Numbered from the stretch's first letter, positions 6,133 through 31,525 are shown. The stretch is DNA of 62,131 nt from an uncultured Saprospiraceae bacterium (GCA_964467315.1 CAYXSA010000012.1:1-62131), one strand, 5' to 3'. Translations and numbers: made by a program. The notes: generated by a model not told the origin, from the sequence alone.

Positions 6133-6239
6133 CGTGAGGGATAGTAGGGGCGAATCAACATTCGCCCTACAGGGCGATGGTGGTACGCCCCGAATAGCCC
6201 GACCCCGCCGCGCAGCGGCGGGGGCACGCCCAAAAAAAA
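6133..6239 (-). repeat. Palindromic repeat family, R orientation (GCGTGAGGGATAGTAGGGGCGAATCAACATTCGCCC...GCGATGGTGGTACGCCCCGAATAGCCCGACC...GGGCACGCCCAAAAAAAA)
   Basis: Motif match. Confidence 0.85.
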
Positions 6240-6247
6240 CGCCCGAA

Positions 6248-7564
6248 TTACTTTGTAAACCAGCGATATATGTCCATGCCGTTGGCGAAAACCATCAGGC
6301 TAAGGAGCAATAAAATGCCGATAAGTTGGGCATATTCCATGAATTTTTGCGGCAGCGGGCGGCGTATAATCATCTCCACGATGAGGAAAAGCGCGTGCCC
6401 GCCGTCGAGCGCGGGTATGGGCAGCAAATTCATGAAGCCGAGAATCAGCGAGAGGACGGCGGTGATGTACCAAAAGCGACTCCAATCCCAAGTAGTTGGG
6501 AACAGCGAAGCGATGGAGCCGAAACCGCCGATGCTTTCCGAAGCCTTGATTTCGCCCGAAAACATCTTGCCGAAAGCGCTAAGTTGTACGCCCAAAAAAT
6601 TTACGCCTTCGCGCACGCCTTCGGGGAAGGAGGCGAAAAAGCCAAAATGTTCGCGCTCCATGACGGGCACACGCGGACGAAGCCCTACAGTGCCGCTTTC
6701 TGTAGTCGTCAATTTAATGTCTTTCGCCTCGCCCTTGCGGATGAGGCTAATCGTGATTTCTTTGGCTTTATTGGCTTGGAAAGCCTTTACAAACTCGTGG
6801 TAATAGATAGTCGGGCTGCCGTTGATAGCGATGAGCGAATCGCCTTTGGCGATGCCTGCCTTTTCGGCGGGATTGCCCGCTACGGCTTCTTCTACGACGA
6901 AAGCGAAGCGCGCGCCGACGAGCTCGCCCTTGTAAGAGGGCAATTTGCTGGTAACGCTATCGGGTAGATTAAGGACGAGTTCAGCGCCATTGCGGCGAAC
7001 GGTGATGGTTTTAGCGCCATTGAAAACGATGCCTTTGAGTAGGGCACCGCCGCTAACTTTCGTATAGGGTTCGTCGCCTACTTTCAGGATATAGTCGCCG
7101 TCTTGCAGACCGAGCGACTGCGCCATAGCATCGGCAGCGATGCCCGCAGGGGCTTTTTCCATCGGCAGAAACTCGCGCCCATTGACCCAAAGTATCATCG
7201 CCCAAATGAAAAAACCAAGCACGAAGTTCACAAATACCCCGCCCAGCATTACGATAAGCCGTTGCCATGCGGGTTTGGAACGAAATTCCCAATCCTGTGG
7301 CGGCTGTGCCAGTTGTTCGGTGTCCATGCTCTCATCGACCATGCCCGCGATTTTCACATATCCGCCCAGCGGGAGCCAGCCCAAACCGTATTCGGTGTCG
7401 CCTTTTTTCGTTTTCCAAACAGCAAACCAAGGGTCGAAAAACAAGTAAAATTTATCTACGCGCATTCCAAATAAGCGGGCAGGCAAGAAATGCCCCAATT
7501 CGTGTAGCGTTACCAATATCGACAAGCTCAAGATGAGCTGTGAAATCATTATAAGTGTGGTCAT
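6248..7564 (-). CDS. rseP: RIP metalloprotease RseP (site-2 protease with PDZ domain)
   Basis: HELGHF zinc motif in the first transmembrane segment, internal PDZ region, C-terminal LDGG motif; 438 aa. Confidence 0.9.
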   Translation of the reverse strand: MTTLIMISQLILSLSILVTLHELGHFLPARLFGMRVDKFYLFFDPWFAVWKTKKGDTEYGLGWLPLGGYVKIAGMVDESMDTEQLAQPPQDWEFRSKPAWQRLIVMLGGVFVNFVLGFFIWAMILWVNGREFLPMEKAPAGIAADAMAQSLGLQDGDYILKVGDEPYTKVSGGALLKGIVFNGAKTITVRRNGAELVLNLPDSVTSKLPSYKGELVGARFAFVVEEAVAGNPAEKAGIAKGDSLIAINGSPTIYYHEFVKAFQANKAKEITISLIRKGEAKDIKLTTTESGTVGLRPRVPVMEREHFGFFASFPEGVREGVNFLGVQLSAFGKMFSGEIKASESIGGFGSIASLFPTTWDWSRFWYITAVLSLILGFMNLLPIPALDGGHALFLIVEMIIRRPLPQKFMEYAQLIGILLLLSLMVFANGMDIYRWFTK

Positions 7565-7807
7565 TTAGCTTTGTAAGACGGCGATAGGATGCGAAAATAG
7601 CCACAAAATTAGCATTTTTATCGAAAGCAGCCGAAACCTTAAGAGACTTTAATAAGCGATATTGTACGCCGTAGGCAAGCGCAGCCCAAACTGCGGAAAA
7701 TGGAACGAAATATGTACGCCCGTTCCTATAAGCGCAACAACGAAAATTCTGTATATTTGTGCTCCTCTTTTTTCCTCTCTCCTCACACTCTTCAAGCTCC
7801 TCCTCTT

Positions 7808-8320
7808 ATGAAAACATGGTGGCAAACGCTTTTACTCTGTTTCTTCGTCGCTACAGCGAGCCAAATGAACGCCCAAAAAAGCGGCGACAAACTCCCCGAT
7901 GTTACCGTTAAAGACCTCAACGGCAAAAGCATTGCCCTCAAAAGCGTCGTGAAAGAAGGCGAAATCACCGTCATTAGCTTCTGGGCTACTTGGTGCACGC
8001 CCTGCAAAAAAGAACTCGACAACATGGCTGACCTCTACGACGATTGGAAGAAAAAATATAACGTCCACATCATCGCCGTCAGTATCGACGATGCCCGCAC
8101 CAGCGCCAAAGTAAAACCCACCGTCAACAGCAAAGGCTGGGATTATACCGTGCTCTTAGATAGCAACGAAGACCTCAAGCGCGCCCTCAATATCTCCACC
8201 GTGCCCTTCACCCTGCTCATCAACCAAAAAGGCGAAATCGTCTACCAACACACAGGCTACAAAGAAGGCGACGAGAAAAAACTCGCCGAAAAAATCAAAG
8301 CCCTTAGCACCAAAAAATAA
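7808..8320 (+). CDS. TlpA-like thiol-disulfide oxidoreductase (AhpC/TSA or Redoxin family), secreted
   Basis: Signal peptide MKTWWQTLLLCFFVATASQ and a WCTPC active site (ISFWATWCTPCKKE); the ORF has a long unlikely 5' extension. Confidence 0.8.
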   Translation: MKTWWQTLLLCFFVATASQMNAQKSGDKLPDVTVKDLNGKSIALKSVVKEGEITVISFWATWCTPCKKELDNMADLYDDWKKKYNVHIIAVSIDDARTSAKVKPTVNSKGWDYTVLLDSNEDLKRALNISTVPFTLLINQKGEIVYQHTGYKEGDEKKLAEKIKALSTKK

Positions 8321-8333
8321 AACATAGCAAAAT

Positions 8334-8445
8334 AGCCCCAAAGGGGCGTTTTCTTCCGTAGCCGCAGGTAAGCGCGACAGCGCGCAGCCTGCGGGCGGCA
8401 TAAGCGCAAAGCCCCCAACAACAAGGGCTTTGCGTTTTTTTCTTA
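8334..8445 (+). terminator. Two tandem rho-independent terminator hairpins after the thioredoxin-like gene
   Basis: AGCCCCAAAGGGGCGTTTT, and GCAAAGCCCCCAACAACAAGGGCTTTGCGTTTTTTT. Confidence 0.6.
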
Positions 8446-30002: not shown

Positions 30003-30125
30003 TTTATTTTCTTTGTTTTATTTAAGCCATAAAAACGCGGTTAAAAATTAGCCCAATTTACGACAAATAAAATCTGCCAACAAAGAAACAAGCTATATTT
30101 TTTATCGGAGTGGCTGAAAGAGGGC

Positions 30126-30286
30126 TTTTTTTGGGCGTGCCCGCCGCTTGCCCCCCGCCCGCTACGCGGTCGCCCCCATGCGCGCAAAGCGCACAAGGGG
30201 GGCGGCGGTCGGGCTATACGCGGTTTCAGTACTTCGCGGCATAAATGCCGCTCGTACCGCTTCGCGCCGCTCCTATCCCTCACGCA
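30126..30286 (+). repeat. Palindromic repeat family, F orientation; pairs with 31369-31525 and brackets mvaD
   Basis: TTTTTTTGGGCGTGCCCGCCGC...GGCGGTCGGGCTATACG...CTATCCCTCACGC. Confidence 0.85.
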
Positions 30287-30290
30287 TCGC

Positions 30291-31319
30291 TTATACGAGC
30301 TTTTCCGCCCCCCGTCCGACCGCGTCCGCCAAAAATTGGCGACCCTCGCAATGGGTTAGCAATTCGCTTTCCAGCAAATCGCGCACCTGCCTTTGTATCG
30401 CTTTCGGATACAATAAATGCAAATTCGGTCCCGCATCGAGCGTAAAATACAAGGGCAATTTGGTCGCTTCGCGCCACTGCCGTATGATTTGTATCAGCCG
30501 CAAACTTTCGGGCTGCATCAGCACAAAGGAAGGACGCGAAGACATCATCAACGCATGCAGCGTAAGCGCCTCTTCTTCGATGATGGTACCCGCTTCCGCT
30601 ATCTCGCCCACTCGCAGCGCCGACAAAAGCCGCCCCAGATTATCCTCTGCCTGCGCATAACGAGCCGCCGCAAAGGGATTGCCCTCCATGAGTTCATGCC
30701 CTACAGAGCTGGAAACCGCCTTTTCCGCCTTGCTCACAAATAAAATATCGTTGCAATAATCTTGGAAAATTGGGTGCAATTCCTCGCCAAAGGGCACAGC
30801 GTAAAAATTCGACGCATCAGCGGCGTGGGCGGTCTTGCCCCAAATCGCAGCACCCGCATACACCGAGCGGCAAGCACTACCCGAAGCCAAACGCGAAAAA
30901 TGCGAAGCACGCTGCCGAAATTCCGCCTCCCCCAAATTGCTAAATCCTATCTGCTGCCCCATATCCACCAGACAAAGCGCCAGCGCACTCAAGCCCGATG
31001 CCGAAGAAGCAATACCCGCCGAATGCGGAAAACTATTGCTCGAAGATATGCGGAAATCGTATTCCCGCAAAAAAGGCATTTCATCTGCTACGCTCGCCAT
31101 ATAACGGCGCACGCGCTCCGCAAAAACCGCATTCTCTACCCCCTCAAATAAAAATGCAACTTCGCCCTTGCCGCCTGCGCTGTAGGACATCTGCGTATCG
31201 CTCGCCGCCGCCGATAGGGTGAAACTAACGGAGGCATTGCGCGGCTCTTGCCGCCCCATCTTGCCCCAGTATTTTACGAGCGCTATATTGGAGGGGCTGC
31301 GCCATTGGATAGTATTCAA
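30291..31319 (-). CDS. mvaD: Diphosphomevalonate decarboxylase
   Basis: SPSNIALVKYWGK N-terminus and GHMP-kinase fold motifs; 342 aa. Confidence 0.9.
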   Translation of the reverse strand: MNTIQWRSPSNIALVKYWGKMGRQEPRNASVSFTLSAAASDTQMSYSAGGKGEVAFLFEGVENAVFAERVRRYMASVADEMPFLREYDFRISSSNSFPHSAGIASSASGLSALALCLVDMGQQIGFSNLGEAEFRQRASHFSRLASGSACRSVYAGAAIWGKTAHAADASNFYAVPFGEELHPIFQDYCNDILFVSKAEKAVSSSVGHELMEGNPFAAARYAQAEDNLGRLLSALRVGEIAEAGTIIEEEALTLHALMMSSRPSFVLMQPESLRLIQIIRQWREATKLPLYFTLDAGPNLHLLYPKAIQRQVRDLLESELLTHCEGRQFLADAVGRGAEKLV

Positions 31320-31368
31320 AATTATGAATTACGAATTACGGGTTACGAATGTTTTTTGCGCCCAATAA

Positions 31369-31525
31369 GCGTGAGGGATAGTAGGGGCTTATCAACATTC
31401 GCCCCATTGGGCGATGGTGATAAGCCCCGAATAGCCCGACCCCGCCCCCCTTTTTGCCCCGCGCAAGGCGCGGGGTGCACGCCCGTTTTTAGGGCGGGCA
31501 GGGGCGGGGGCACGCCCAAATAAAA
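31369..31525 (-). repeat. Palindromic repeat family, R orientation, with a duplicated outer-end module
   Basis: GCGTGAGGGATAGTAGGGGCTTATCAACATTCGCCCCATTGGGCGATGGTGATAAGCCCCGAATAGCCCGACC...GGGGCGGGGGCACGCCCAAATAAAAAAAA. Confidence 0.85.

Follow-up and report, generated by a model that had tools for sequence, protein, structure and literature searches.

A modular intergenic repeat family in a Saprospiria-like contig

The 62,131-nt stretch analysed here (GCA_964467315.1 CAYXSA010000012.1:1-62131, hereafter the window) is a 62-kb contig from a Saprospiria-like Bacteroidota metagenome-assembled genome (MAG). It contains approximately 25 copies of one modular repeat element that combines a conserved frame of the Flavo-1 type (Rfam RF01705) with GTAG-tagged repetitive extragenic palindrome (REP) units in the tips of its hairpins. 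All copies are intergenic, both strands are represented, and the genes beside them have ordinary housekeeping roles (rseP, serS, alaS, lnt, murC-like, ruvA, holA and others). Set in one orientation, the copies (85-212 nt) share the plan 5' GCGTGAGGGATAG - hairpin 1 - (N)ATAGCCCGACC - hairpin 2 - GGGCACGCCC - A-run; box GCGTGAGGGATAG has 23 matches in the window against 1.07 expected, box GGGCACGCCCAAAA 26 against 1.26, and box ATAGCCCGACC 26 against 0.75. The original prediction, which concerned a structured repeat module at 6133-31525, quoted its arms and copies correctly, each reading as cited at its site; the family is indeed present over that span, but the span is only part of its extent, which runs from 1269 to 61819 and hence across the whole window.

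Every copy tested, whichever module it carries, is predicted to adopt one common three-way-junction fold, whether treated as RNA or as single-stranded DNA (z-scores -3 to -7). The junction is closed by a helix, P1 (GCGUG/CACGC); the base of hairpin 1 reads GGG-A-UA..UA-G-CCC, in which the GGG/CCC and UA/UA pairs are separated by conserved purine-purine mismatches (A.G and G.A); and hairpin 2 starts with CC/GG. Distal parts of both hairpins are variable, and it is these that the REP palindromes occupy in this genome. The non-Watson-Crick positions (A.G, G.A, A.G, C.A) recur phylum-wide. The window copies carry the Flavo-1 boxes and basal hairpin (GGG-A-UA-GNA-GC .. GC-GNA-UA-G-CCC-GA); the boxes are exact in 19 of the 23 copies compared, and the rest have at most one mismatch.

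Copies are far denser here than elsewhere: the window has 23 in 62 kb, compared with ~5 in 752 kb for loci of 100 other genomes (excluding the copies by which those loci were fetched), a lineage-specific amplification of approximately 50-fold. Relatives with 76-83% SerS identity contain no element in ~36 kb, and have an ordinary terminator downstream of serS, where the window carries an element; the intergenic DNA is not alignable, and attempts to reconstruct an exact empty site yielded none. Window copies are homologous from GCGTG to CACGCCC, and their flanks are unrelated. Neither a terminal inverted repeat longer than 5 bp nor a target duplication was found in the window copies, which fits HUH-type rather than DDE-type mobility. 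As a separate observation, the closest relative found (SerS 91% identical) is represented by a 1392-nt contig that ends 33 nt past the serS stop codon; the window element lies ~65 nt 3' of the corresponding stop, and the contig break may stem from the repeat.

A Flavo-1-type scaffold conserved across Bacteroidota

Scanning one genome per species, we found the pattern GCGTGAGGGATAG..ATAGCCCGACC at more than 104 loci from Flavobacteriia, Sphingobacteriia, Chitinophagia, Cytophagia, Saprospiria and Bacteroidia. The same boxes (GCGUGA..GGGAUAGAAGCGGCAU..ACAGCGGAUAGCCCGACC) are present in the Flavo-1 seed alignment (Weinberg et al. 2010, PMC2864571), which also contains GCGUGAGGGAUAG .. AGCGGAUAGCCCGACC, identical to the boxes of the window. 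Rfam has included Flavo-1 since 2010, and the family appears in lists of the most abundant bacterial small RNAs ('sRNA'). The frame boxes (13, 11 and 8 nt) are almost invariant across the phylum, and the original suggestion that structure rather than primary sequence is maintained must be divided accordingly: structure is maintained, in that all copies form the same junction, but for the frame the suggestion is wrong. The original prediction recognised neither the frame as Flavo-1 nor the module as a REP of known type.

The Rfam Flavo-1 model scores above its gathering threshold on the elements found by this pattern in three of the loci (L005, L030 and L072; 57-63 bits). In the window it matches five copies at 25.5-37.3 bits, all below the gathering threshold of 42. 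Four of these have a canonical, Flavo-1-like hairpin 1: 4869..5002 (-; GGAGCGGAACCACC..GGUGAUGGAGCGG; 29.8 bits), 14621..14752 (-; 30.9 bits), 22387..22535 (-; 35.2 bits) and 52944..53054 (+; 25.5 bits); the fifth is the copy at 1269..1379 (-; 37.3 bits). In the remaining window copies, including those with the module we call (a), the model finds no match even at E<=10, and at the gathering threshold the sole Rfam match over the window is a tRNA. The Rfam model comprises 76 positions and hairpin 1 only, with neither the GCGUG/CACGC closing helix nor hairpin 2. Among 105 listed elements, which were ascertained without reference to the 3' box, CACGCC (the partner of 5' GCGUG) occurs within 140 nt in 99, compared with 3 of 105 in an upstream control. 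Because the P1 partner box and hairpin 2 lie outside the RF01705 model, the full architecture is larger than the curated one, and it is this larger three-way junction, missed by the model, that accounts for its failure on every window copy. The extended architecture, and the nesting of REPs inside it with massive amplification, both appear to be absent from the curated description.

We scored window copies with a covariance model of the whole junction, built only from 37 elements of other genomes. This junction model recovers 23 window copies at E<=6e-4, among them all 7 copies with module (a) (33-62 bits), and the window copies are therefore members of the Flavo-1-type family. The four copies of canonical type are all matched by it (46.9 bits at 4869..5002, 59.2 bits at 52944..53054), as are the copy at 1269..1379 (54.4 bits) and, head-to-head with it, the copy at 1448..1576 (+; 24.2 bits).

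Pairing with covariation is strongly supported at the level of the family. Double-sided change affects 11 of 23 pairs in the 37 elements taken from other genomes, giving 68 cells against 20.5 +/- 3.4 in shuffles (0/500), and slid controls of the same seed pair at only 22-44%. Aligned to the junction model, 25 window matches show double-sided change at 16 of 23 pairs, and pairing holds in 94% of cells, compared with 78% when shuffled (0/500), although this alignment was fitted to the model and so favours structure. Hairpin 2 is different in all 23 window copies, but is Watson-Crick at 83% of positions 2-7, compared with 45% when partners are swapped. Individual copies also carry compensated changes in the junction itself: G-C to C-G in P1 of the copy at 1269 (closing helix GCCUG/CAGGC), and A-U to G-C in P2 of the copy at 24161 (boxes AUGG / ACAG).

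Outside the window, a Leeuwenhoekiella locus (L063, 528-982) contains four Flavo-1-type elements in tandem with a 121-nt period. Within the window, a tandem array of a 47-nt unit (22670-23023; 7.5 copies, 92% matches) is separated by ~135 nt from the 5' end of the 22387-22535 element, and a 2426-residue open reading frame (15079-22359) has elements on both flanks. The window also contains a tandem repeat of 21/42 nt (GGCATCGCCGAGTATATAGAT; 62020-62131), which runs off the window end and may be a coding heptad-like repeat, and two AT-rich terminator-type hairpins (AAAAAAGCCACATAAATAACTGA..TATTTATGTGGCTT; 137-181 and 51029-51073) that are 87% identical to each other and unrelated to the element family.

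GTAG-tagged palindromes in the hairpins

Scanning the window for GT[AG]G tags that directly abut a GC-rich stem-loop (5-13 bp stem, short loop) yields 27 sites, against ~8 in shuffles. Nineteen of the 27 are units of the repeat family with perfect 8-9 bp stems, belonging to the types GGGCGAAT, AGCCGTAGC, GGGCAGAC and AGCCGCAAT; 18 of these 19 lie inside element frames, on the frame strand, in hairpin 1 or hairpin 2, and one, a REP (b) unit at 51580..51603 (-), lies outside any frame. REPs flanking the subclass 2.4 genes for REP-associated tyrosine transposases (RAYTs) of Cytophaga hutchinsonii include GTAGGGGCGAATTGCATTCGCCC and GTAGAGACGCAATTTATTGCGTCT (Quentin et al. 2018, PMC6006769 Table S1). 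The former has the same tag and stem as module (a), GTAG GGGCGAAT / ATTCGCCC; the latter matches GTAGAGCCGCAATTTATTGCGGCT of the window except at one compensated pair, so that the window and C. hutchinsonii subclass 2.4 share a second type, GTAG AG(A/C)CGCAA TTTA TTGCG(T/G)CT.

Module (a) occupies distal hairpin 1 and consists of the REP GTAG-GGGCGAAT-CAAC-ATTCGCCC followed by an inverted, degenerate copy, GGGCGATGGTGATACGCCCC, identical at 18 of 21 positions in an alignment made by eye and devoid of a CTAC tag. Its seven copies are 94% identical and are found in the elements at 6132..6235 (+; REP at 6144-6167; 58.7 bits), 9202..9329 (-; recognised by its boxes, the REP scan and the junction model), 31369..31521 (+), 43011..43118 (-; the best junction-model match, 61.5 bits), 47006..47116 (-), 55702..55855 (-; REP scan and junction model; with REP (b) in hairpin 2) and 57499..57606 (+; fold and junction model). 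Two inner hairpins had been described in this module; the four arms can form them as an alternative, but the minimum-energy fold, for RNA and DNA, is one long imperfect hairpin. Such alternatives are familiar from REP doublets forming hairpins (REPINs), in which a long hairpin and a 'clover' are alternative folds and compensatory changes across the hairpin are common (Bertels and Rainey 2011, PMC3116915). When metagenomes were scanned with the module (a) inner core (AACATTCGCCC..GGGCGATG), the 28 loci recovered all proved to be chance matches that lack the frame; module (a) is private to this lineage.

Module (b) is the single REP GTAG-AGCCGTAGC-AT-GCTACGGCT, found in the elements at 11072..11156 (+; fold, REP scan and junction model), 24161..24245 (+; 53.2 bits), 26965..27048 (-; 3' of serS and its terminator) and 61733..61819 (-; starting 11 nt past the alaS stop codon), the last two identified by the REP scan and the junction model; these methods also identify the element at 37217..37399 (-), where module (b) sits further up hairpin 1 by one helix and hairpin 2 is long and compound. 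Module (d), GGGGCAGACC.., has the same build as module (a), a REP and an inverted copy. The swapping of whole modules noted in the original prediction is real: the copies at 38876-39008 (+; REP scan and junction model; GTAG-GGGCAGACC..GTCTGCCC plus an inverted degenerate copy) and 47237-47360 (+; fold, REP scan and junction model) carry GGGGCAGACC..GTCTGCCC at the position that module (a) occupies elsewhere. The remaining copies are a long element at 14807..15018 (+), weakly matched by the junction model (13.5 bits), with a single REP (a) unit in hairpin 1 (14858-14881) and the REP GTAG-AGCCGCAAT-TT-ATTGCGGCT (REP scan; 14946-14969, +) in hairpin 2; an element with long hairpins at 30129..30285 (-; 24.8 bits); an element with a nested 'double-foot' palindrome, GTAG..CTAC, in hairpin 1 at 44032..44139 (+; REP scan and junction model); and two copies of a variant, one (GCGUGAGCGGG..ACACGCGACC; inverted repeat, 32.9 bits) at 33386..33500 (-), the other at 34153..34288 (+), which has a REP (b)-like palindrome in hairpin 2, is missed by the junction model at E<=1, and has its start placed by eye from the upstream flank. 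REP (b) is embedded in hairpin 1 through three or more different junctions, is present in hairpin 2 as well, and has one unit outside a frame, and the types of hairpin 1 and hairpin 2 assort independently, from which it follows that the elements are mosaics.

We considered whether Flavo-1 is itself the cognate repeat of a Bacteroidota RAYT and rejected this. Among the 104 loci listed, one (L072) has a RayT gene, 51 nt from the element; at 4 further RayT loci the gene is flanked by another palindrome (ACCCTnnCAGGG..) and Flavo-1 occurs only at unrelated positions. Subclass 2.6 REPs, as listed, have no resemblance to Flavo-1. The RayT gene in question is single-copy in Flavobacterium and Yeosuana (L072 2129-2746, -; L139-L143 4001-4615, +; 73-100% identical), has more than 4600 homologues at E<=1e-10, adjoins a conserved downstream block mazG-aroA-queA, and lies 3' of dtd in most loci; its own palindrome, ACCCTnnCAGGGTTTnAAACCCTGnnAGGGT, is present on both sides, with inner dinucleotides that co-change between species.

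The paired change on which the original prediction relied lies in the module (a) copy at 31369. In the copy at 6132-6235, arm GGGGCGAATC (6147-6156) is opposite arm GGTACGCCCC (6182-6191); in the copy at 31369-31521 the arms read GGGGCTTATC (31384-31393) and GATAAGCCCC (31419-31428), changed together as had been claimed and perfectly complementary over 10 nt. For module (a) alone (7 copies, 27 pairs), 21 pairs are invariant, one is changed on both sides, in one copy, and two have one-sided changes, both giving G.U on the element's strand. One of these is in the minus-strand copy at 47006, where + strand 47055-47064 (GGGGCATATC) is the 3' arm; a G-C pair is here uncompensated, being G.T (G.U as RNA) on its own strand and A.C on the other. 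As 57 of 500 shuffles equal the double-sided change, it is not significant by itself. Pairing with covariation is therefore supported for the family (0/500 shuffles) but not by the example cited, which is better explained by one templated event.

Relative to the other six module (a) copies, the copy at 31369 has two adjacent changes on arm 1 (GA to TT) and one on arm 4 (C to A), which together erase an A.A mismatch (A.G in one copy) that the other six retain. Intrastrand template switching, or quasipalindrome correction, is a known mutational process in bacteria. A C to A change on arm 4, followed by copying of arm 4 onto arm 1, would produce GA to TT and the perfect 10-bp stem in one step. 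We prefer such a single templated event because one step accounts for all three base changes; selection for the ancestral structure would not have required removal of the mismatch. The paired change is thus probably one template-switch event. The same logic also fits hairpin 2, whose stems are different and yet perfect in the otherwise near-identical elements at 11072, 26965 and 61733. Template switching would imply that the hairpin forms in single-stranded DNA in vivo; selection on RNA is not demonstrated by these changes.

A proposed role as folded single-stranded DNA, its alternatives and known systems

We place at about even confidence the best-supported reading, namely that the element is a mosaic repeat resembling REPs and bacterial interspersed mosaic elements (BIMEs), made of a Flavo-1-type three-way-junction scaffold with RAYT-type REPs in its hairpin tips, and that it acts and evolves as folded single-stranded DNA. 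The element would be active in that form, for example on the lagging-strand template; a RAYT-type HUH transposase, whose gene would lie elsewhere in the genome, would disperse its REP units; modules would be reshuffled between copies via insertion or recombination; and both intrastrand template switching and selection would renew the complementarity between arms. The identity of the two components, their fold, the covariation at family level and the lineage-specific amplification are shown, while mobilisation by a RAYT, template switching and the preference for DNA over RNA are inferred. This must be tempered by several points that weigh against it. The near-invariance across the phylum of the boxes and of the A.G, G.A and C.A pairs is far above that of any known REP family, which suggests a host function or an RNA tertiary motif and calls for a conserved partner; the RAYT family tested, Flavobacterium RayT, is flanked by a different palindrome rather than by Flavo-1. 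No RAYT, Y1 or other transposase was found among the genes of the 62-kb window, the second half of the module has no GTAG/CTAC tag and is hence only REPIN-like, and insertion or excision is presumed rather than directly observed. In 108 of 129 copies (88/106 elsewhere, 20/23 in the window), the fold of the element's strand is more stable than that of the complementary strand, which is the expectation for a strand-specific RNA. Lastly, three Pedobacter species (L041 278-380, L048 2402-2504, L065 6357-6459) have the element at one orthologous site with an alignable 3' flank, so copies can persist long; the distal hairpin of L041 is wholly different from those of the other two and still paired. 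A more tentative version, which we hold at well below even confidence, takes Flavo-1 to be not an sRNA but a phylum-wide single-stranded DNA three-way junction for a conserved Bacteroidota protein, able to burst to thousands of copies in a lineage, with tips that would serve as preferred landing sites for RAYT-REPs.

Symmetric GNA/GNA internal loops are typical RNA motifs, and those of hairpin 1 (3x3) are conserved phylum-wide. It is nevertheless unlikely, in our estimation, that the element is a structured non-coding RNA (the class to which Rfam assigns Flavo-1), transcribed from the element strand, with a junction whose G.A/A.G loops are functional or protein-binding and with paired changes that record selection on the RNA fold. 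The strand difference in stability and the Pedobacter retention favour such an RNA, as do the G.U outcome of both one-sided module (a) changes and the grading of Flavo-1 as a likely RNA from covariation and variable-length stems (Weinberg 2010, PMC2864571). Wobble counts elsewhere in the element point to neither strand clearly: in hairpin 1, with fixed mismatch positions excluded, G.T and A.C are about equal (25 vs 19); the G.T excess in hairpin 2 is confounded by base composition; and the best-conserved mismatch, C.A, favours the opposite strand, where it is a G.U wobble. Signals for transcription are likewise missing from the element itself. No consistent match to the Bacteroidota promoter TAnnTTTG ending at the element's first G was found in the flanks of the listed loci, and the element, T-rich in its 5' flank and ending 3' in an A-run that is often within 40 nt of a convergent stop codon, does not have the form of an intrinsic terminator. 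Elements and adjacent genes are oriented almost at random to one another (downstream gene opposite in 51 and same in 44; upstream gene same in 51 and opposite in 35), and a 50-fold jump in copy number with hairpins replaced by REPs would be odd for a trans-acting RNA. Published data for Flavobacterium psychrophilum are equivocal: Flavo-1 matches there lie in either the sense or the antisense direction relative to transcripts, and many show no transcription (Guérin et al. 2021, PMC9723704).

Proximity to gene ends raises a different role, which we judge quite improbable: a cis-acting part of mRNA ends, co-transcribed in either orientation, whose hairpins would block 3' exonucleases or aid termination or insulation, as some enterobacterial REPs and BIMEs do (such roles are summarised in PMC3733652). 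A convergent stop codon is found less than about 40 nt from the 3' end of the element in 30 of 51 cases elsewhere and in 7 of 15 window cases, the element's hairpins fold in both orientations, and elements adjoin terminator-like hairpins: a separate GC-rich hairpin, with an A-run and a T-run, precedes many copies, as at 24122..24151 (bidirectional-terminator-like by terminator scoring) and similarly at 38839-38866, and these are the best terminator-like sites of the region. The element has no hairpin followed by a U-run in either orientation, however, close relatives use ordinary terminators at the same sites, and a simple exonuclease block requires neither phylum-wide invariant boxes nor conserved mismatches. 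Those boxes, and a placement independent of orientation, would also suit a duplex DNA site or cruciform for a conserved host protein of nucleoid, gyrase or recombinase type, with hairpins that matter only as cruciforms; BIMEs bind IHF and gyrase in E. coli. We consider this very improbable, since conserved non-complementary stem positions (A.G, G.A, C.A) are meaningless in duplex DNA, stems that vary from 6 to ~90 nt sit poorly with a fixed protein footprint, and no candidate protein is known.

The window shows the Flavo-1 motif as one component of a larger three-way junction absent from the Rfam model, and as a dispersed repeat by its behaviour. Because RAYT-type REPs can occupy the variable stems, the element connects two repeat systems hitherto investigated apart. 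When the arms of such a hairpin change in an apparently compensatory way, this is not automatically evidence of selection on an RNA fold, because a single templated event can have the same outcome. Annotation of Bacteroidota genomes and MAGs would gain from a covariance model extended to P1 and hairpin 2, which would also help to explain assembly breaks and spurious small open reading frames at element sites.

Among known systems, the curated Flavo-1 family has the same hairpin 1 architecture (3x3 internal loops and a variable distal stem), occurs in the same phylum and is likewise multi-copy; the window element differs in having its distal stem replaced by REP palindromes and in its density, ~50 times that of other genomes. 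With GTAG REPs and REPINs (PMC6006769, PMC3116915, PMC3733652) the modules share a 5' GTAG tag followed by a GC-rich 8-9 bp stem with a short loop, an inverted doublet (in module (a)) able to fold as one long or two short hairpins, compensatory changes across the hairpin, and units that are extragenic and multi-copy. They differ in that the second unit of the module (a) doublet is degenerate and untagged, that 18 of the 19 window units are nested in a Flavo-1 frame rather than free between genes, and that a cognate RAYT gene is not visible within 62 kb.

Like miniature inverted-repeat transposable elements of DDE type (Correia/NEMIS, ERIC, RUP), which are short, non-coding, dispersed and structured and undergo lineage-specific expansion, the element has spread within one lineage; unlike them, it has no terminal inverted repeat beyond the 5-bp P1 and no target-site duplication. 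E. coli BIMEs and pneumococcal BOX elements combine conserved boxes with interchangeable hairpin modules that assort independently, and are intergenic near gene ends; the window element likewise consists of boxes and swappable hairpins in such positions. There is no sequence relation between them, and the boxes of the window element, which pair to close a three-way junction, are kept across a phylum, whereas those of BIMEs and BOX are kept across a genus or family.

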